From the IMG/VR virus record IMGVR_UViG_3300045988_013400: 5,893 bases of DNA. One strand, given 5' to 3'. Position 1 is the stretch's first letter, and every line of letters begins with the position of its first letter. The stretch comes from a virus. The notes beneath the pieces are model-generated. The model did not search any database. It had not been told where the DNA came from and was given only the letters and a program-made list of their open reading frames with translations. The translations under genes were made by a program, and so were the position numbers. Positions 1 to 5,893 of this stretch are shown piece by piece.

Positions 1-99
1 ATTTTTTTTGTGACGTATCCTGCAACATATCTATATGTTTCTGGCACTGCTTGTGCTATCTGTATTTGACCCATGCCCCATAGGTTCGCTAGCCATTCA
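1..99. repeat. Terminal overlap copy A, identical to 5795..5893. This is the circular-contig closure of a 5,794-nt genome, not a biological terminal repeat.
   Basis: Base-by-base comparison: attttttttgtgacgtatcctgcaacatatctatatg...cgctagccattca occurs at 1..99 and again at 5795..5893. A single open reading frame (Rep) reads straight through the junction. Confidence 0.95.
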
Positions 100-662
100 C
101 TCGTAAAGTATCCGTTGTGTTGTATCTTGTATAGGTGTTTTAGGTCTGTTGGCTGCCATCCATACAGTATCATGTGATAATGTGGTCTTGCTGTCTGTTC
201 TCCGTACTCTCCCGCTACAAAATAGCGTAATTTGCCCCTATAAGCCTTTCTGAGACGTTTTAAGAATTTTTGAATGTCAGTATATAGCAACGTTTGGACG
301 CTTTCAGGGCGCTTCTCTCCCGGTTTCCAGACGTATTGCACTTTTCGCATGATTTCACCTGTTTTTACTATCATGCCCGGTACGTGATTATCATCATAGG
401 TTAGTGTAATAAACCAGACTTGCTCTTTTGGATAATCTCGTGCTTCTAATTCTATTCGTGTTGTCCAGTCCTCTTTTTGTCTGATTCTGCATCCGATGCA
501 CTGTCCGCATGGTATTAGCATGACATTTTTTCTGTACATCAGGTCTTCATATTTTAGCTGTTTCCCGCTTATTTCAGAAAAGCGGGCAAGTGAATACACC
601 CGCCCGCTTACGTCTTTATTTTCCGGGTTGTACAGCCTTATTAATGGCTTGTAACAACTCAT
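1..662 (-). CDS. VP4: Replication initiator VP4 (HUH rolling-circle endonuclease), 5' portion. The gene is complement(join(5437..5794,1..662)) on the circle, 339 aa in total.
   Basis: Absent from the ORF track because it runs off the window edge. Hand translation of the - strand in the frame of ORF 5437..5868 is open from the ATG at 662..660, with an in-frame TGA just upstream at 674..672. It reads MSCYKPLIRLYNPENKDVSGRVYSLARFSEISGKQLKYEDLMYRKNVMLIPCGQCIGCRIRQKEDWTTRIELEARDYPKEQVWFITLTYDDNHVPG...ARPHYHMILYGWQPTDLKHLYKIQHNGYFTSEWLANLWG and then joins MGQIQIAQAVPETYRYVAGYVTKK. Motifs seen: CGxCxGC, FITLTY (motif I), HYHMILY (HUH motif II), and YVAGYVTKK (two-tyrosine motif III, compare phiX174 protein A YVAKYVNKK). 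The ATG overlaps the VP2 stop as ATGA, and a GGGTGAT Shine-Dalgarno lies 8 nt upstream. Confidence 0.92.
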   Translation of the reverse strand, partial: MSCYKPLIRLYNPENKDVSGRVYSLARFSEISGKQLKYEDLMYRKNVMLIPCGQCIGCRIRQKEDWTTRIELEARDYPKEQVWFITLTYDDNHVPGMIVKTGEIMRKVQYVWKPGEKRPESVQTLLYTDIQKFLKRLRKAYRGKLRYFVAGEYGEQTARPHYHMILYGWQPTDLKHLYKIQHNGYFTSEWLANLWGMGQIQIAQAVPETYRYVAGYVTKK

Positions 663-1528
663 TTTAAATAATCACCCGGCTTTCGTTTTTCTCCGTATGA
701 CCCGGTTTTGTCTTGCGGTTTCATACTTCTGCTTTGTTCTGTGCCTTTTTGTTTTCCTACTTTATCTGTTGCCTTTGTGATGGCTTTGCTTGTGTTGTCT
801 TGGACTTCTGTAAGTGCTTTTTGCAGTCCGTACGGTGACATATGCGTTTCGCTAAGCATTTGTTGCCAGCTTTGCGCAGCGTTGTACCAGTCGCTTTGAC
901 TCCAGCTTGAACTTGAGTATGCATTTGGTACAAACCCGCCGCTTCTGCTTACTCCTAGTGCGCTGCTGCTTGCAAGCCCCATACTTGCCCCGCTGATTGT
1001 TCCTGCTGACCCGCCCGGTGTGCTTGCTCCACCGTTTGCAAATGCTAAGATTGGGTTAAGCCCTGCTTTTTTCATATCTTCAACGGCTCTTTGATATGCT
1101 GTACTGCTCATGTGCTCTTGCCATTCGCGGTTTGCTAGTGCTTCTGCACTGTTGTAGTTCATTGCTACGCTGTTTTCGATGTGGTTATATACGCCCTGCA
1201 TGATTGCTTGTAAGGTGTTATACCCCATTTGTTTAAGCATACTTTGACTGTTGTATTTGCCTTGCATGGCAGCTTCTTGCCCTTGGTATGCGTATGCCTT
1301 TTTAAGCCAGTCATCAACTTGCTGTATGTTTGTTCCTGATTGGCTTCCGCTCTCGGAGTGTCCACCGCCTTGGCTTATGCTGCCGCCTTGGCTTTGGCTG
1401 CCGCCTTCTTGACCCCATCCGCCAAATGCTCCGGCGATCTGTTTACCAGCGTTTGCAAATGTTCCAACTGTGCTTGCAATGTTTCCGGCCACGTTGAGCG
1501 CTGTTAAGAATCCTGATAATCCCGCCAT
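659..1528 (-). CDS. VP2: Minor capsid / DNA pilot protein VP2 (289 aa)
   Basis: ATG-started ORF immediately downstream of VP1. It carries the gokushovirus VP2 signature EWQEHMSSTAYQRAVEDMKKAGLNPILA, a hydrophobic/Gly-rich N-terminus, a GGSxSQ low-complexity repeat and a basic C-terminus. The stop TGA (661..659) overlaps the Rep ATG. Confidence 0.85.
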   Translation of the reverse strand: MAGLSGFLTALNVAGNIASTVGTFANAGKQIAGAFGGWGQEGGSQSQGGSISQGGGHSESGSQSGTNIQQVDDWLKKAYAYQGQEAAMQGKYNSQSMLKQMGYNTLQAIMQGVYNHIENSVAMNYNSAEALANREWQEHMSSTAYQRAVEDMKKAGLNPILAFANGGASTPGGSAGTISGASMGLASSSALGVSRSGGFVPNAYSSSSWSQSDWYNAAQSWQQMLSETHMSPYGLQKALTEVQDNTSKAITKATDKVGKQKGTEQSRSMKPQDKTGSYGEKRKPGDYLK

Positions 1529-1567: not shown

Positions 1568-3250
1568 TTACAGTTTGTACAAGCCCGGTACGCTGTACAG
1601 TGGCATCCGTCTTGTGGTTTTGTTTGCTACTCGGATAGCTCCGAAAAATTGCGGTTCGTTCTCTACGATCAATGTCCTTGCGATTTCTTTTTTTCCTTCT
1701 GCCATCCACTCTTGCGATAGCATCGGCACGGTTGAATAGTTGTCGGCATAGTGCCAGAAATCTAATGTACCACTCGCGTTACTTCGCATTTTGCCAGATA
1801 CTCGATTCGGTTTCATTCTGTAGTCTGCCCATGCTTCTTGATAACCAAATGTTTCTTCATCTGTCGTATTGCCTGTGAGCATGATTTCTTTCTTTTTTAC
1901 CGGCTGCTCGCCAATATTTGCAAATTGAGGCACGTAATAGTCCAGTCTGTCCGTTCTGCTCCAGAAACGTTCAAGTCCCTGCTGGTACGAGTGATTGTGT
2001 CTCACGCAACAGACGCCGATTACAAAGCCGTGCTCCTCGAAAGATTTTGTGAAACTGCTTTCATTGATTGGCGTTACTGACATTGCGCCAGTTTCGCCGA
2101 TCGGCGTATTCTCGTTGGTCTGCTGTCCGCTGGTCTGTACGATCTGGTTAATATTGACGTGGTATCTGCCACCGCCAAGATATTCCGGCACTTGTACGGT
2201 TTTATCCGAGATAGTTACATCCCACAGTGCTTGTACCTGTTCGCGGTATCTGCTGCCACCTCTTGCAAGTGCTTCATAGTACTGCTGCACTGCTACGGCT
2301 TTTCTCAGTTCGTTAATGGTTGTTGCAGTTACTGCGCCGATGTCTGCATACATCCACCCTCCCGCGCCTAATTCGTTGGATATTTTTTCTTTTCCGGTAA
2401 ACTGCATCGCTTTTTTTTCTCCGGGTGCTCCTGTGGCATTTGTATAGCTCAGAGAGCCCGGCACGTCTGCACCGCTAGCGGCTACTACCATTTCTACCGG
2501 TCCTTTGAAATTCATGTAAGTTCCATTAGGGTCCCCTAATCTGATAGGTGCATTTCCTGTCATCGGCAGTGCCACTTCCGGCCCGCGTTGAGGATATGGC
2601 AAACAGCTTGTGAAGTAGTCGTGGAATTTGTTTACCGGTAAACATCTTCCCCCTGTTATTGCGTTTTTTAGCGCTTCTTCTATCGTTTCGCTTTGGGTGA
2701 TTTCCGTGTATGAAACGTCGCTGTCGTCTGTTTTGAATACTGCTGCATTACCTACGTTTTCGTCTCGGAAATATTCGTTCCATATTTTGACGTATGCTCG
2801 TACGGGCAGCGCGTTAATTTTGAAAGTCTTGTTTACTTTTGTCGGCACTCCCATATAGTCGAGAATTGAACCTTCCATTGGATATGTTGGATTGTTGTCG
2901 TTGCTTACTCTGATTTCTGGTACTTTATAGGTTTTTTCTGGCGACCATGGTCTTTCTTCTACTTCTCCCATGAATTGTTTGAAATGATCCCATAAGATTC
3001 TATTTGGACAGTAGAAATAGTAGAAGTCAATGAATGCATCGTCCATCACCGGATATTTTGGCGTTGTCATTCGGATGATCGCTGACGTGTCCACACTAAA
3101 TGTGTCGCCCGGCAATACTTCGTCTACGTAAAACGGAATCAATTTGCCGGAATCAAACGTTGTTAAAATCGTCTGGTCGCGGTTAAACCGTGTCCGGCTT
3201 GCTCTCATTTCTGGAATCTGGTTGAAGTGCCGTTCATTGTTTCGATTCAC
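1568..3250 (-). CDS. VP1: Major capsid protein VP1 (560 aa, phiX174 F-protein homologue, gokushovirus-size)
   Basis: The N-terminus HFNQIPEMRASRTRFNRDQTILTTFDSGKLIPFYVDEVLPGDTF is the canonical Microviridae capsid N-terminal signature. The 560-aa length, with a long central insertion, matches Gokushovirinae rather than the ~426-aa phiX-like F. The start is GTG at 3250..3248, preceded by AGGAG (3262..3258) at a 7-nt spacing. The next in-frame ATG would remove the conserved HFNQIP segment. Confidence 0.95.
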   Translation of the reverse strand: MNRNNERHFNQIPEMRASRTRFNRDQTILTTFDSGKLIPFYVDEVLPGDTFSVDTSAIIRMTTPKYPVMDDAFIDFYYFYCPNRILWDHFKQFMGEVEERPWSPEKTYKVPEIRVSNDNNPTYPMEGSILDYMGVPTKVNKTFKINALPVRAYVKIWNEYFRDENVGNAAVFKTDDSDVSYTEITQSETIEEALKNAITGGRCLPVNKFHDYFTSCLPYPQRGPEVALPMTGNAPIRLGDPNGTYMNFKGPVEMVVAASGADVPGSLSYTNATGAPGEKKAMQFTGKEKISNELGAGGWMYADIGAVTATTINELRKAVAVQQYYEALARGGSRYREQVQALWDVTISDKTVQVPEYLGGGRYHVNINQIVQTSGQQTNENTPIGETGAMSVTPINESSFTKSFEEHGFVIGVCCVRHNHSYQQGLERFWSRTDRLDYYVPQFANIGEQPVKKKEIMLTGNTTDEETFGYQEAWADYRMKPNRVSGKMRSNASGTLDFWHYADNYSTVPMLSQEWMAEGKKEIARTLIVENEPQFFGAIRVANKTTRRMPLYSVPGLYKL

Positions 3251-3254
3251 TTTT

Positions 3255-3671
3255 TTACTCCTTTTCCGTCATTTTGCTATTCGTTTGCGCCTGATCGGTG
3301 CTTTTTGCATTGTCTGTTTTCGTCATTTTAGACAATTCTTTAAGCTTCATTGCGTTTGCTTGTGCGGTCGCAATCATGCGGTGATACTCATGAATGTTTT
3401 GCGGAAATTCGGTGATGTCCACTTCTGCCCCCGTCATTGCTCCTTCGGATAAGCTTTTAAGGAACTGCGGGTCAAAACTAGCTTTTCGGACGATGCTTTT
3501 GATATCACATTCGTCTGCATAGCTTTCGATCTCCTGTTGAATGTCGATCGGTGCTGTTTCTTGGAGTACTTCTTCCCCGTTTTCGTCTTTCACCCAGACG
3601 TATTGTTTCCGGAATTTTTCTCCGCTTTCAGAAAAGAAGGGCTTTCGCCCTTCTTCATATCGTTTATTCAT
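3255..3671 (-). CDS. VP3: Putative internal scaffolding protein (VP3-like), 138 aa from the ATG at 3671
   Basis: Lies directly upstream of VP1. It is acidic and helical, with ADECDIKSIVRKASFDP resembling the ...CDIN.I..RF... core of gokushovirus VP3 as I recall it. The track start at 3710 is a TTG. The ATG at 3671..3669 has GGGAGGG (3686..3680) upstream and overlaps the preceding gene's stop (ATGAATAA). The family assignment rests on a remembered motif and on gene position only. Confidence 0.55.
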   Translation of the reverse strand: MNKRYEEGRKPFFSESGEKFRKQYVWVKDENGEEVLQETAPIDIQQEIESYADECDIKSIVRKASFDPQFLKSLSEGAMTGAEVDITEFPQNIHEYHRMIATAQANAMKLKELSKMTKTDNAKSTDQAQTNSKMTEKE

Positions 3672-3903
3672 GCGGCTTGCCCTCCCAGACTTTTTCGTTG
3701 TCGTTGACAAATTCGCCGTTTTCGTCGTTGAATTTTGCTAACTTATAGCCGGTATAATCTTCCGGCGACTGCCCTACAAAGGTTTTTTCGTCCTTTGCCA
3801 TTACATTGCACATTCTTGCAAACGTTGCGTTGTTCTTATTCTCGCCTACCCATGCATAGCATTTTGCTACGTTGTCCCATAGTCCATAATACAGATGCTC
3901 CAT
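3664..3903 (-). CDS. VP5: VP5-like non-structural protein (79 aa from the ATG at 3903), possibly involved in ssDNA synthesis/packaging
   Basis: MEHLYYGLWDNVAKCY...ATFARMC...SPEDYTGYKLAKFNDENGEFV follows the pattern I associate with chlamydiaphage/gokushovirus VP5 (short N-terminal beta strand ..D.KA..y, A.R.F, PEDY.LY.iG.fDd.tG.f). The track start at 3936 is a GTG that overlaps the ORF8-like gene. The ATG at 3903..3901 has AAGGA at a 7-nt spacing. Confidence 0.55.
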   Translation of the reverse strand: MEHLYYGLWDNVAKCYAWVGENKNNATFARMCNVMAKDEKTFVGQSPEDYTGYKLAKFNDENGEFVNDNEKVWEGKPHE

Positions 3904-3919
3904 TGTCTTTTCCTTTCTT

Positions 3920-4021
3920 TTACAGCCGGATGCCACCGCGCATGGGCTTCTGGTTAAGGTTGATAGCTTTCGTCTTTCTCGCGGTTACGTTGAACATGTG
4001 GCGATCTTTTGCGCCGCTCAT
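3920..4021 (-). CDS. ORF8: Small basic DNA-binding protein (gokushovirus ORF8 / phiX174 J-like), 33 aa. Not in the supplied ORF track.
   Basis: Hand translation from ATG 4021..4019 to TAA 3922..3920 gives MSGAKDRHMFNVTARKTKAINLNQKPMRGGIRL. It has 8 K/R in 33 aa and a C-terminal F..TA.kt...N......MRGGIRL, which matches my memory of chlamydiaphage ORF8 ending ..LFSRTA......N....IMRGGIRF. It fills an otherwise unexplained 89-nt gap in a gapless genome and starts 4 nt after the upstream stop. There is no strong Shine-Dalgarno, so expression is probably by translational coupling. Confidence 0.65.
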   Translation of the reverse strand: MSGAKDRHMFNVTARKTKAINLNQKPMRGGIRL

Positions 4022-4025
4022 TTTC

Positions 4026-4253
4026 TTACGATGTTGTGCCATCGTTATACTCCCTTCTGATTAGTTCCATTTCAATGGCGTTTGCAAAGCTTTTCACTTG
4101 CCAAGTTTCTTCTACTAGCCTTTTAGCGTCTTCGATATTTGCCACTTTTCTAAGCATTTTGTAATTGCCATCGATTTCTTTATACTTTCGTTCGAGTAGT
4201 TCTTCCAGTGCTTCTTTGGTCTGATCTCGCACGTTCCATGTCTTGTTCATCAT
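4026..4253 (-). CDS. Hypothetical protein, 75 aa, predicted all-helical and highly charged, with no recognisable family
   Basis: ATG at 4253..4251 with AGGAG (4264..4260) at a 6-nt spacing. It starts 3 nt after the upstream stop and has the same strand and codon style as its neighbours. No transmembrane segment or motif was recognised. Confidence 0.6.
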   Translation of the reverse strand: MMNKTWNVRDQTKEALEELLERKYKEIDGNYKMLRKVANIEDAKRLVEETWQVKSFANAIEMELIRREYNDGTTS

Positions 4254-4256
4254 GGC

Positions 4257-4379
4257 TTACTCCTTTTTTTCTTCGTTGATACTGTCGTGCAGTGCATGAT
4301 AGATTTCGTCAAGCTTTTCGAGAATCTGCATCATAATGCGAATTGCCTGCTTGACGTCTTTAATGCTGATTAGTGCCAT
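4257..4379 (-). CDS. Hypothetical small protein, 40 aa (MALISIKDVKQAIRIMMQILEKLDEIYHALHDSINEEKKE)
   Basis: The track ORF 4257..4451 starts at a GTG inside the peptidase gene. The ATG at 4379..4377 lies 1 nt after the peptidase TAA and is preceded by GGGGG (4390..4386) at a 6-nt spacing. The product looks like a single amphipathic helix. It is short, so the coding call rests on the Shine-Dalgarno site and the tight packing. Confidence 0.45.
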   Translation of the reverse strand: MALISIKDVKQAIRIMMQILEKLDEIYHALHDSINEEKKE

Positions 4380-4380
4380 T

Positions 4381-4773
4381 TTATACCCCCTTTCTGTATT
4401 TTTCATTTCGTGTGTCGAAATGTACCCAGTTGTCATATACGATGATGCCACCGCTGTTTGGCACGATGCTGTTTAGTACTTTTGCAAGTTCCTTTGGCGT
4501 TATTCCGTTCGCTCTGATGTCTGCTGCCATGCCTCTTGTATGGTAGCTGTATTTTGCTCCGCCTACTTTTTGGTTGTGGCTTACTGTGCGGTATCCGCTT
4601 GTGATTACAATCGGCTTATTGATTTTTTTTCGCGCGATTTCTAGAATGACTGCTAAATAATCGTCAACGAATACGATTGGCGTTCCGTCTTTGCATGCAA
4701 ATTCTTTTACTTTGAAGTGGTCTGTAACTTGTTCGTTTCCTTGCGCTTCTGCTAGATACGCTTTGATTTCCAT
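4381..4773 (-). CDS. Peptidase M15A-family (VanY/hedgehog-fold zinc D,D- or L,D-peptidase) cell-wall hydrolase, 130 aa, putative endolysin
   Basis: Motifs seen: ITSGYRTVSHNQKVGGAKYSYHTRGMAADI, which contains SGYR and the H-x6-D zinc ligands, and the third ligand in NWVHFD. This is the Peptidase_M15_3 / M15A pattern. The track start at 4848 is a TTG lying inside the promoter. The ATG at 4773..4771 (MEIKAYLAEAQ...) has AAAGGAG (AGGAG core at 4786..4782) at an 8-nt spacing. No signal peptide, transmembrane segment or cell-wall-binding domain is visible. Confidence 0.85.
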   Translation of the reverse strand: MEIKAYLAEAQGNEQVTDHFKVKEFACKDGTPIVFVDDYLAVILEIARKKINKPIVITSGYRTVSHNQKVGGAKYSYHTRGMAADIRANGITPKELAKVLNSIVPNSGGIIVYDNWVHFDTRNEKYRKGV

Positions 4774-4810
4774 GCCCTTTACTCCTTTCGTTTTCTGCAA
4801 TTCACATTGC

Positions 4811-4848
4811 ATTATAAGTATTTTATCATTTGTCAAGTCTTTTTTCAA
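4811..4848 (-). promoter_or_regulatory. Sigma-70/SigA-type promoter(s) driving the whole - strand gene string
   Basis: The - strand reads TTGAAA (4848..4843), a 17-nt spacer ending in TGa, then TAAAAT (4825..4820), which is a good -35 / extended -10 arrangement. Nested within it are a perfect TTGACA (4836..4831) and a perfect TATAAT (4816..4811), but these have only a 14-nt spacer. An AT-rich UP-like tract lies upstream (4849..4873). The first gene's Shine-Dalgarno and ATG follow about 30-45 nt downstream. Confidence 0.55.
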
Positions 4849-4873
4849 TATTTGTAATTATATTGTAATATTC

Positions 4874-4924
4874 ACTGTGCAAACTGGCAAGGTTGCCGCA
4901 GGCAATTTTGCCTTTTTGCACAGT
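4874..4924. repeat. 51-nt near-perfect palindrome (long hairpin/cruciform) built from alternating GGCAA/TTGCC pentamers
   Basis: Positions 4874..4897 pair with 4924..4901 around a 3-nt loop (GCA, 4898..4900). Of 24 positions, 20 are Watson-Crick pairs, 2 are G.T (4891/4907, 4892/4906) and 2 are mismatches (4884/4914, 4885/4913). Pentamers: GGCAA at 4886 and 4901, TTGCC at 4893 and 4908. Confidence 0.9.
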
Positions 4925-4925
4925 T

Positions 4926-4940
4926 CTTGCCGTAGGCAAG
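4926..4940. repeat. Second TTGCC-N3-GGCAA palindrome (cTTGCCgtaGGCAAg)
   Basis: A 6-bp stem with a 3-nt loop. It has the same 13-bp TTGCC-N3-GGCAA core as 4893..4905, and the two centres are 34 bp apart. Confidence 0.85.
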
Positions 4941-4953
4941 TTGTTAGCTCACT

Positions 4954-4991
4954 CTAACCGGTGCCCAGTTAGTCAGGCTAACCGTTTTCAA
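4954..4991 (+). repeat. 38-nt direct repeat copy A: one 24-nt hairpin unit ctaaccggtgcccagttagtcagg followed by ctaaccgttttcaa
   Basis: Identical at every base to 5391..5428. The unit folds as CTAACcGG-tgc-CCaGTTAG (8-bp stem with one mismatch). Confidence 0.95.
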
Positions 4992-5105
4992 AGTTTTCAA
5001 CACTTTCAACACTTTCAACAGGTTTTCAACAAAATGTTGCACAATGATTTTCGTCATTTTGACGAACTTTCAACAATTCAACAAGTTTTCAACAAAACTT
5101 TCAAC
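4986..5105. repeat. Iteron array: TTTCAAC(A) direct repeats in two clusters flanking a small hairpin
   Basis: Exact TTTCAAC begins at 4995, 5004, 5013 and 5024 (spacings 9, 9, 11) and at 5068, 5087 and 5099, with variants at 4986 (TTTCAAA) and 5076 (ATTCAAC). Outlying exact copies begin at 5153 and 5423. All are in the same orientation, and I found no exact copy in the coding regions by eye. Between the clusters, TTCGTC-atttt-GACGAA (5050..5066) forms a 6-bp hairpin. Confidence 0.9.
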
Positions 5106-5207
5106 AGCATTTTTTGCCTTTTATTTACGCTTTAGCGTTAAATTTTAGTACTTTTCAACTTTTCCACTACCCCTACTACTACTTCTACAACAAGTTAATA
5201 TTATATT

Positions 5208-5250
5208 GCGCGTGCGCGCGTGCGCGCTATCGCGCGTGTGCGCACGTGTA
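5208..5250. repeat. GC-rich alternating purine-pyrimidine block (Z-DNA-prone and self-complementary)
   Basis: gcgcgtgcgcgcgtgcgcgc (5208..5227) and cgcgcgtgtgcgcacgtgta (5231..5250) are each 20 nt of perfect Pu/Py alternation, separated by tat. Positions 5208..5248 are 78% GC (32 of 41) in an AT-rich genome. CGCGC (5223..5227) pairs with GCGCG (5232..5236) around the loop tatc, and the stem extends to 5216/5243 only through three G.T pairs on the + strand. Confidence 0.9.
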
Positions 5251-5302
5251 AATTAGATTATTTGATGGACAGAATAGTCTGATACATGGAGCCTTTAGAC
5301 GA

Positions 5303-5338
5303 CAAAAGCCCAGTACCTTACTTGATAGGTACTGGGCT
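5303..5338 (-). terminator. Rho-independent terminator downstream of Rep (end of the genome-length - strand transcription unit)
   Basis: The - strand reads AGCCCAGTACCT-atcaagta-AGGTACTGGGCT, a 12-bp perfect stem (5338..5327 pairing with 5318..5307) with an 8-nt loop, followed immediately by TTTG TCGTC. The T-run is short (4 T counting the last stem base). Confidence 0.6.
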
Positions 5339-5366
5339 AGGTGACACCATTTTCTAGTTAGTTAGA

Positions 5367-5428
5367 CTAACCGGTGCCCAGTTAGTCAGGCTAACCGGTG
5401 CCCAGTTAGTCAGGCTAACCGTTTTCAA
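5367..5428 (+). repeat. Tandem 2 x 24-nt hairpin units plus ctaaccgttttcaa. The last 38 nt (5391..5428) are direct repeat copy B.
   Basis: ctaaccggtgcccagttagtcagg occurs at 5367..5390 and 5391..5414, then ctaaccgttttcaa at 5415..5428. The array lies in the 3' UTR between the Rep stop (5437) and the terminator. Confidence 0.95.
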
Positions 5429-5436
5429 CGATATTG

Positions 5437-5893
5437 TTAAAGTGTCCCCCTCTTCTTCATCTGCTTCTTTATCACTCTTTCTTTTGTCTTACATTGCTCT
5501 GCAAAGTCTGCATTTTCATACTTAAGTCGGTTCTCTGCTATGACTGCCGCTTGTCTGTTCTGTTTAATTCTCCACAATCTTTGTGGGTTTTCAGCTTCCA
5601 TCATTTTTTCATAATAGCGCGGAATTTGTGCGCGTTTGCCGTTTGTGCATTGGATATATCCTTGCCGCCAGATTTCTTCTTTGTGCTCTTGGTAATAGTG
5701 ATCGCCTAAACCCGGTTTTAGGCTCATGCAAGCGAATGGTTTTGCTTGTCCTAGTTCGTAGTATGCGTTTGCTTTTTGACCGTCTATCTCATACATTTTT
5801 TTTGTGACGTATCCTGCAACATATCTATATGTTTCTGGCACTGCTTGTGCTATCTGTATTTGACCCATGCCCCATAGGTTCGCTAGCCATTCA
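5437..5893 (-). CDS. VP4: Replication initiator VP4, 3' portion (the C-terminal 119 codons plus stop are unique; 5795..5893 duplicates 1..99)
   Basis: ORF 5437..5868 translates as MGQIQIAQAVPETYRYVAGYVTKKMYEIDG.... The frame stays open upstream to the window end and continues at position 100 onward. The stop is TAA at 5439..5437. The track's M at 5868 is internal, not the true start. Confidence 0.92.
   Translation of the reverse strand, partial: EWLANLWGMGQIQIAQAVPETYRYVAGYVTKKMYEIDGQKANAYYELGQAKPFACMSLKPGLGDHYYQEHKEEIWRQGYIQCTNGKRAQIPRYYEKMMEAENPQRLWRIKQNRQAAVIAENRLKYENADFAEQCKTKERVIKKQMKKRGTL
5795..5893. repeat. Terminal overlap copy B (identical to 1..99)
   Basis: See the feature at 1..99. 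Confidence 0.95.

Follow-up and report, generated by a model that had tools for sequence, protein, structure and literature searches.

A candidate endolysin of probable Clostridia phage origin, with no adjoining holin, in a human-gut gokushovirus

How can a cell-wall hydrolase that has no export signal and no membrane partner reach the wall? The question is raised by the virus record IMGVR_UViG_3300045988_013400, a stretch of 5893 nucleotides (the window) from a gokushovirus-type microvirus. An open reading frame (ORF) on its minus strand, running from an ATG at position 4773 to a TAA at 4383–4381 (393 nucleotides), encodes a 130-residue peptidase of family M15, here called M15. We think it on balance probable that M15 is an acquired endolysin of a human-gut gokushovirus with a Clostridia host, and that it gains access to the wall after separate damage to the membrane. 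Its role is likely to be at exit.

The assignment of M15 to the LAS/M15A zinc peptidases is near certain from its sequence. Pfam family PF08291 (Peptidase_M15_3) matches residues 19–120 at profile positions 2–108 of 108, with an E-value of 1.1e-21 and 77.4 bits, far above the curated cut-off of 23.2. As the domain fills this part of the 130 residues, there is no space for a second one. PHROG 894 (“endolysin”) matches the protein at E 8.8e-41, and NCBIfam gives a weak, partial and sub-threshold likeness to the L,D-endopeptidase MepK (42 bits against a cut-off of 185). An earlier note on this DNA had described a stand-alone, single-domain M15A-type peptidase of 130 residues at 4381–4773, without a binding domain, taking about 7% of the genome and carrying SGYR, H-x6-D and VHFD motifs. 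It had proposed a profile search as a check. The Pfam match and the ORF read back with its translation bear out this description: the gene makes up 6.8% of the true genome length of 5794 nucleotides, after a 99-nucleotide duplication is removed, and the motifs lie at residues 59–62 (SGYR), H78-TRGMAA-D85 and V117-H118-F-D120.

The catalytic residues of M15 are intact. S59, R62, H78, D85, H118 and D120 are invariant in 122 homologues (81 microviral and 41 from Clostridia), and Y61 of SGYR is invariant or nearly so. The closest solved structure by sequence is 1LBU, the zinc DD-peptidase of Streptomyces albus G (MEROPS M15A). When the two proteins are aligned, H78 and D85 of the H-x6-D zinc motif pair with H154 and D161, and in the SxxR-like arginine region the SGYR arginine pairs with “GGFR” of 1LBU. 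Judged by this alignment and by residue invariance, H78, D85 and H118 are the putative zinc ligands, and R62 and D120 are conserved beside them. 1LBU differs in that its core is only about 27% identical and in having an extra N-terminal peptidoglycan-binding domain. The S. albus G enzyme is secreted.

An AlphaFold2 model of M15 has a predicted local distance difference test score (pLDDT) of 68.6, with values of 80–95 in the core. Foldseek comparison of the model with the PDB returned 1LBU first (E 6.9e-4), followed by Hedgehog N-domains, LysECD7, VanY, ChiX and the T5 endolysin. As modeled, this set corresponds to the LAS fold, with VanY and VanXY among the fold matches. The structure prediction that the earlier note had proposed to confirm the zinc site thus recovered the fold, in a model of moderate quality. 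In BFVD, a database of predicted viral structures, M15 peptidases, including those of other microviruses, match the model with TMq up to 0.73. A protein of this kind would be made in the cytoplasm and may be expected to cleave peptidoglycan, cutting its peptide stems or cross-links.

Export signals and membrane partners were sought in a hydropathy scan (19-residue Kyte-Doolittle mean, KD19) of ORFs of at least 25 residues in the circularized genome and at least 20 residues in 72 relatives. Neither a signal peptide nor a signal-anchor-release (SAR) domain was found in M15, whose 30 N-terminal residues are hydrophilic and acidic. Extending the frame to the upstream stop (4857) adds hydrophilic residues only. 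We rejected a signal peptide hidden in the longer gene calls of homologues, as these extensions are hydrophilic read-through of upstream non-coding DNA. On the coding strand of the circularized genome no ORF exceeds a KD19 of 1.19, a value reached by the glycine-rich N-terminus of VP2, and none has a transmembrane segment. The earlier note had claimed that the enzyme has no export signal and that no other minus-strand ORF has a transmembrane helix, and both statements hold. An overlooked membrane protein gene, which according to that note would have settled the matter of export, did not appear in the coding-strand scan. The window has no small membrane protein beside M15, as a canonical holin–endolysin cassette would, and no coding-strand frame contains a transmembrane ORF that could serve as an amurin of the phiX174 E type. 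The C-terminal tail of M15, KYRKGV, was also considered as a microvirus-specific export or packaging signal and rejected, since single-domain Clostridia homologues have a similar tail.

A membrane-protein gene might have been missed if it lay on the plus strand or in a very short ORF, which we find most improbable. Many plus-strand ORFs have a Kyte-Doolittle mean above 1.6, those at 4373–4546, 4336–4476 and 4009–4164 remain open in most relatives, and Roux et al. in 2012 found one complementary-strand ORF beside the peptidase of another genome (PMC3394797). The plus strand, however, is T-rich (AT skew −0.2 to −0.4), so that hydrophobic translations arise from composition alone. Most of the antisense ORFs are interrupted by stops in relatives, and the three open ones are short and most simply explained as a by-product: by our frame calculation, at least 4373–4546 shares its wobble position with the sense gene. 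The complementary-strand membrane ORFs were therefore set aside as a composition artefact. We know of no complementary-strand transcription in Microviridae, which also counts against such a gene.

The absence of a holin beside M15 is the rule in related microviruses. A transmembrane ORF adjoins the M15 gene in only 1 of the 72 related microviral genomes. Among the loci of Clostridia or phages it does so in 20 of 39, typically as a two-transmembrane protein of 62–68 residues that ends at the M15 start codon. This difference indicates that the microviral clade kept the enzyme and not the holin. A holin hidden elsewhere on the coding strand was rejected as well, because the scan of the 72 relatives returned only the N-termini of VP2 and a singleton in genome L018 (IMGVR_UViG_3300045988_062519, 2775–2942). 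There, an insert of about 120 nucleotides between the shared promoter/ribosome site and the M15 ATG encodes a single-transmembrane, holin-like protein of 46–55 residues, the sole such neighbor of M15 in the 72 genomes. It has no homolog among 5.8 billion proteins and no PHROG match. Without homologs in the databases searched, it was discarded as a recurrent microviral holin and regarded as a one-off insertion.

The source of the enzyme can be traced. When a single genome of each prokaryotic species was scanned (185,579 species genomes), 41 cellular homologs of M15 were found, all in Clostridia (Oscillospiraceae, Oscillibacter, Dysosmobacter, Papillibacter, Faecalibacterium, Acutalibacteraceae, one Lachnospiraceae and one Peptococcaceae), with at most 51% identity and at most 47% over the full domain. 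The microviral M15 proteins are monophyletic in a neighbor-joining tree. The phylogeny by which the earlier note had hoped to find the donor thus leads to Clostridia. The closest tailed-phage relative, with 46% identity, is a 137-residue single-domain endolysin of Faecalibacterium phage FP_Toutatis (AUV56799.1), which adjoins an XhlA-like “hemolysin” membrane protein in a cassette. The M15 proteins of FP_Toutatis and of Oscillospirales prophages resemble the viral enzyme in being single domains of 130–138 residues with the same catalytic residues, 40–47% identity and a similar basic C-terminal tail (R-x-x-K-x-R-W/K-x-G). They differ in standing in cassettes with small transmembrane proteins and, in about half of the cases, in carrying wall-binding domains, whereas the microviral M15 has neither. 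Among the Clostridia homologs, about half are the bare domain of 131–138 residues with a similar basic tail. The other half carry C-terminal wall-binding domains, which indicates that the family acts on the mature wall.

These relatives bear on another explanation, that M15 acts in the cytoplasm on murein precursors (D-Ala-D-Ala, UDP-MurNAc-peptides or lipid II stems) in the manner of VanX or VanY and causes an amurin-like lysis with no need of export. A muramoyl-pentapeptide DD-carboxypeptidase, 1LBU, is the nearest relative of known structure, and VanY and VanXY stand among the fold matches. Such an action would explain both the lack of a holin and signal and the early position of the gene, and it would be in keeping with the way in which small phages lyse through a single gene. 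Yet the homologs at 40–47% identity adjoin holins or carry wall-binding domains, which points to the assembled wall as substrate. The transmembrane ORF of L018 lies just upstream of M15, as expected if the enzyme must get out, and nothing in the sequence separates the microviral clade from its endolysin relatives. Recombinant M15 endolysins are, moreover, generally tolerated in the cytoplasm. We consider action on precursors very unlikely.

The virus probably infects a member of the Clostridia, of the Oscillospirales or Faecalibacterium-like. The source of the enzyme supports Gram-positive-type Clostridia as hosts of these viruses, and CRISPR spacers have independently led to the prediction that gut “Gokushoviridae” infect Clostridiales (PMC10159846). 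A prophage copy that could name the host was sought and given up, since only the Clostridia homologs with at most 51% identity were found; there is no microviral prophage among the 41 homologous loci in the 185,579 species genomes. To our knowledge, there is no gokushovirus isolate on Clostridia.

All genes lie on the minus strand according to the ORF list, Pfam and PHROG, and are transcribed in the order Rep/VP4, a 663-nucleotide gap, M15, orf40, orf75, a VP8-like ORF, VP5, VP3, VP1 and VP2:

1–662, minus strand: 5' part of Rep/VP4 (339 residues in total as a circularized ORF, continuing from 5794 to 5437; annotated VP4 in relatives)
5437–5893, minus strand: 3' part of Rep/VP4 (5437–5794) and terminal duplication (5795–5893)
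4774–5436, minus strand: non-coding, repeat-rich gap between Rep and M15 (663 nucleotides), an accessory-gene slot in relatives
4381–4773, minus strand: M15 peptidase gene (PF08291, PHROG 894; single-domain, 130 residues)
4257–4379, minus strand: orf40 (40 residues; its ATG lies 1 nucleotide after the M15 stop, TAAAATG; unannotated)
4026–4253, minus strand: orf75 (75 residues, charged, helical; 3 nucleotides after orf40; in 66 of 80 relatives)
3920–4042, minus strand: VP8-like basic ORF (40 residues, ending in PMRGGIRL; overlaps both neighbors; in 78 of 80 relatives)
3664–3936, minus strand: VP5/ORF5-like (PF20577, E 1.6e-9; PHROG 1670)
3255–3710, minus strand: VP3 internal scaffolding protein (PF09675 Chlamy_scaf, E 2.5e-10; PHROG 24309)
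1568–3250, minus strand: VP1 major capsid protein (PF02305 Phage_F, E 1.1e-137)
659–1528, minus strand: VP2 DNA pilot protein (PHROG 8742, E 7.5e-126; glycine-rich, moderately hydrophobic N-terminus, KD19 1.19)

An exact direct repeat of 99 nucleotides at the two ends of the window (1–99 and 5795–5893) indicates a circular genome of 5794 nucleotides that was opened inside the Rep/VP4 gene, so that Rep is split between the two ends. The circular genome falls in the range of about 4.5–6.3 kb of gokushovirus-type Microviridae and has their F-type capsid protein VP1 together with VP2, VP3, VP4 and VP5 on one strand. The identification as such a virus in the earlier note is confirmed by the matches of VP1 (PF02305), VP3 (PF09675), ORF5 (PF20577) and the VP2 pilot protein (PHROG 8742).

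The gene directly behind M15 deserves attention. orf40 (MALISIKDVKQAIRIMMQILEKLDEIYHAL...) was found by tblastn and protein search in 78 of 80 relatives at 68–98% identity, even where VP1 is just 35–48% identical; with VP1 at 35–91% over the gut gokushovirus group, it is the most conserved protein of that group. Its codon-position entropy of 0.42/0.18/1.05 is a pattern of protein-level purifying selection, and by this measure orf40 is a real gene. It matches 542 protein-database clusters, none of them named, and hardly any GenBank relative has it annotated. An AlphaFold2 model places a helix at residues 6–39 (pLDDT 88.8) with a hydrophobic moment of 0.70; orf40 is thus predicted to be one long amphipathic helix. 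The protein is net acidic with a mean hydrophobicity of about zero. Of the other small proteins, orf75 has no significant family match in Pfam, PHROG or NCBIfam, the sole NCBIfam match reaching 16.5 bits against a cut-off of 418. The VP8-like ORF has no Pfam, PHROG or NCBIfam match where tried; it is highly basic and resembles the DNA-binding VP8/ORF8 protein of Chlamydia gokushoviruses, so that a DNA-binding role is presumed.

Sister genomes without M15 put the missing holin in perspective. KT264799, MG945157 and MG945423 share the small ORFs, VP8, VP5, VP3, VP1 and VP2, their Rep-proximal slot holds other small ORFs, and no recognizable lysis gene was found in any of the three. A generic lysis route must therefore exist (see also PMC7062461), and the membrane breach is a general gokushovirus puzzle, not one peculiar to this genome. 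The region from Rep to the first conserved gene is an accessory-ORF hotspot, with M15 as one of several alternative cargos. Unrelated small ORFs occupy the slot upstream of M15 in relatives L002, L004, L007, L009, L010 and L012, and accessory-slot ORFs also occur at 3702–3902 of L124 (KT264799.1) and at 1460–1645 of L125. The slot of L124 further contains, at 3972–4046, a strongly hydrophobic mini-ORF of 24 residues, MVDVIQSIAIMLLSIAVIINAKRR, absent from L125 and L126, which might encode a lysis peptide or be open by chance.

A phage-encoded partner might stand in for the holin, with orf40, orf75 or the N-terminus of VP2 permeabilizing the membrane or escorting the enzyme. orf40 begins 1 nucleotide after the M15 stop, is under strong purifying selection, is conserved above VP1 across lineages and forms one long predicted helix with a moment of 0.70, while the VP2 N-terminus is the most hydrophobic segment of the coding strand. 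For orf75, a role like that of the chaperone-like factor Gp1 of mycobacteriophage Ms6 can be proposed. However, orf40 and an orf75-like gene are present in M15-less genomes too, so that they are not specific to M15, and orf40 was rejected as an M15-specific partner on this ground. Its acidity and near-zero hydrophobicity are as compatible with a coiled coil as with a helix that acts on membranes. The H protein of phiX174 has a glycine-rich N-terminus similar to that of VP2, yet phiX174 needs E for lysis, and no family match in Pfam, PHROG or NCBIfam ties orf40, orf75 or VP2 to lysis. We see a fairly small chance for such a partner. The broader proposal that the gut gokushovirus clade releases a signal-less endolysin without any holin, via a membrane-active factor (orf40 being the best candidate) or as an “enzymatic amurin”, seems to us doubtful. 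If it were true, holin-free release would amount to lysis of a new kind, and the function by which gokushoviruses lyse their hosts, missing for so long, could be identified.

Stand-alone wall hydrolases are known from other microviruses. The peptidoglycan hydrolase Gp7 of microvirus Ebor has been shown to degrade peptidoglycan (PMC11980548), which supports the endolysin reading of M15. Gp7 and the M15 metallopeptidases of cultured Occultatumvirinae roseophages and Rhizobium microviruses are regarded as lysis enzymes. The activity of Gp7 was demonstrated by zymogram, but these viruses belong to other subfamilies, and their hosts are alphaproteobacteria, which are Gram-negative. A membrane protein of 45 residues, Gp1, is predicted in Ebor as well, whereas no transmembrane ORF exists on the coding strand here. 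The methods text on Ebor calls Gp7 a “lysozyme”, so Gp7 may not be an M15 enzyme (PMC11980548). The likeness to phiX174 E is that of a small single-stranded DNA phage lysing without a holin–endolysin pair; E, in contrast, is an overprinted transmembrane peptide that inhibits MraY, and the present virus has a free-standing enzyme.

Ebor also provides an argument for an entry factor. M15 might act mainly or additionally at entry, a few virion-borne copies locally digesting the thick wall of a monoderm host to let a tail-less 27-nm particle through to the membrane, as lytic enzymes of PRD1 or phi6 serve entry. A trace of Gp7 was detected in purified Ebor virions by liquid chromatography–tandem mass spectrometry (PMC11980548). 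In tailed phages, large tail-associated proteins contain M15A domains (BFVD matches, 520–1191 residues), the Clostridia predicted as hosts have walls of the Gram-positive type, and a pure late lysis gene would not need an early promoter-proximal position. Against this, the nearest homologs of M15 are free endolysins in lysis cassettes and not structural proteins, M15 has no capsid-binding or extra domain, and the M15-less sisters, whose capsid genes are the same, presumably manage to infect similar hosts without the enzyme. The “trace” of Gp7 in Ebor virions may, besides, be contamination. We consider a role at entry rather unlikely.

In the account that we favor, an ancestor of the microviral clade captured the catalytic gene from the lysis cassette of a Clostridia tailed phage or prophage, leaving the adjoining holin behind. 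The gene now occupies the accessory slot that separates Rep from the structural genes. No other gene stands between it and the conserved sigma70-like promoter, and its translation is coupled to that of two small conserved ORFs. With no export signal and no transmembrane protein, the enzyme most likely reaches the wall only once the membrane is compromised. That damage would come from the generic gokushovirus lysis function that M15-less viruses must also have, and the enzyme might then accelerate or complete the breakdown of the wall at release. Several points weigh against this account. For this clade we infer both the activity and the exit role of the enzyme from sequence. No membrane-permeabilizing partner was found, so wall access is a gap in the account. 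A late lysis gene would not usually lie next to a promoter and, as it seems, without regulation. The host is assigned indirectly, with no prophage or close match in the 185,579 species genomes, and the structural model is moderately confident (pLDDT 68.6, with the N-terminal 34 residues below 50).

Part of this picture was already known, namely an M15 gene in gut gokushoviruses, its Clostridiales affinity and its presumed endolysin role. Roux et al. reported M15_3 peptidases in five Gokushovirinae and six Alpavirinae from human samples in 2012; four of the five gokushoviral peptidases group with Faecalibacterium prausnitzii genes that adjoin holins (PMC3394797). The authors set these enzymes against phiX174 E, put them forward as endolysins and speculated that the hosts might be Gram-positive (PMC3394797). 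Their peptidases agree with the present one in Pfam family, habitat, Faecalibacterium/Clostridiales affinity and the proposed role of a horizontally acquired endolysin; what is added here are the prevalence figures, the holin adjacency of 20/39 against 1/72, the monophyly and orf40 as a real gene. Later papers treat microviral peptidases as recurrent accessory lysis genes (PMC9239249, PMC7062461, PMC11499846, PMC9512667).

The nearest genome, Human gut gokushovirus SH-CHD5 (KX513868.1), shares 88% nucleotide identity over 92% of the length. Its M15 protein is 96% identical and annotated “peptidase M15” in GenBank, where the record is classified as Gokushovirinae. SH-CHD5 (KX513868.1/MG945514.1) and other gut “Microviridae sp.” with peptidases have the same order, VP4, gap, M15, small ORFs, VP3, VP1 and VP2. 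SH-CHD5 differs in an upstream region of about 990 nucleotides with other content, against 663 nucleotides here, and orf40 is unannotated there. The gene is widespread: a tblastn search with M15 matches 659 phage records, 1258 protein clusters match at E ≤ 1e-5 (the best 120 on microvirus-sized contigs except for one 10-kb contig), and 221 IMG/VR loci match. The earlier note had called M15 peptidases sporadic in metagenomic microviruses, the wrong word for a gene with 1258 clusters and 221 loci, and the novelty that it implied falls to the 2012 publication (PMC3394797) and the existing annotation of KX513868.1.

Across hundreds of microviral genomes, M15 is under strong purifying conservation. 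Gokushoviruses are among the most abundant human-gut viruses, and their lysis mechanism deserves attention. An endolysin that came from a holin-containing cassette and is kept without a holin in 71 of 72 genomes implies a holin-independent membrane breach. The interest that remains lies in this wall access and in the conserved orf40 beside M15.

The signals that would express M15 lie directly upstream of it:

4782–4788, minus strand: Shine-Dalgarno-like AAAGGAG, 8 nucleotides upstream of the M15 ATG, read from the sequence; AGGAG-like in relatives
4820–4848, minus strand: promoter-like TTGAAA-17-TAAAAT with a TGn extended −10, from a consensus scan, its function putative
4862–4890, minus strand: second promoter-like TTGCCA-17-TACAAT, a consensus match alone, within an imperfect 24-nucleotide hairpin at 4874–4924
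5307–5338, minus strand: terminator-like hairpin with a 12-bp stem (7 G-C pairs) and a T run, about 100 nucleotides after the Rep stop

The consensus scan puts the best minus-strand promoter-like sites of the whole genome directly upstream of M15. A perfect TTGACA (4836–4831) and TATAAT (4816–4811), just 14 nucleotides apart, overlap the site at 4848–4820. When the 230 nucleotides upstream of M15 are aligned for 20 relatives, TTGAAA/TTGACA-N17-(TGn)TAnAAT and the AGGAG-type site hold their positions while the surroundings diverge. This is good circumstantial support, not proof, that a sigma70-like promoter drives M15. At the level of consensus, the earlier description of the gene as promoter-proximal agrees with the site at 4848–4820, whose position and architecture are conserved in diverged relatives, and with that at 4890–4862. 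The hairpin at 5338–5307 would end the preceding transcription unit.

The 663-nucleotide gap contains no ORF with a family match and no Rfam family, and an RNA element there was rejected for want of an Rfam match. A 24-nucleotide unit, GGTTAGCCTGACTAACTGGGCACC, occurs on the minus strand in three tandem copies just after Rep (5357–5428) and once about 390 nucleotides downstream (4949–4991), each copy site adjoining TTGAAAAC. As these direct repeats bracket most of the non-coding region, they suggest a recombination or insertion scar, or protein-binding sites. At 4985–5170, about a dozen copies of GTTGAAA(A/G) with a spacing of 8–9 nucleotides resemble iterons or stacked −35 boxes. Similar GTTGAAA/GTTAAAA runs lie upstream of M15 in relatives L005, L006, L008, L011, L016, L017 and L020–L022. 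At 5205–5250, a GC-rich, alternating purine-pyrimidine and partly palindromic tract, ACACGTGCGCACACGCGCGATAGCGCGCACGCGCGCACGCGC, stands out from a region of otherwise 40% GC; it resembles a Z-DNA- or cruciform-forming sequence and has no Rfam match. Farther along the genome, a terminator-like hairpin on the minus strand between VP1 and VP2 (1538–1557; an 8-bp stem with 6 G-C pairs and a T run) might attenuate read-through into VP2 and Rep.

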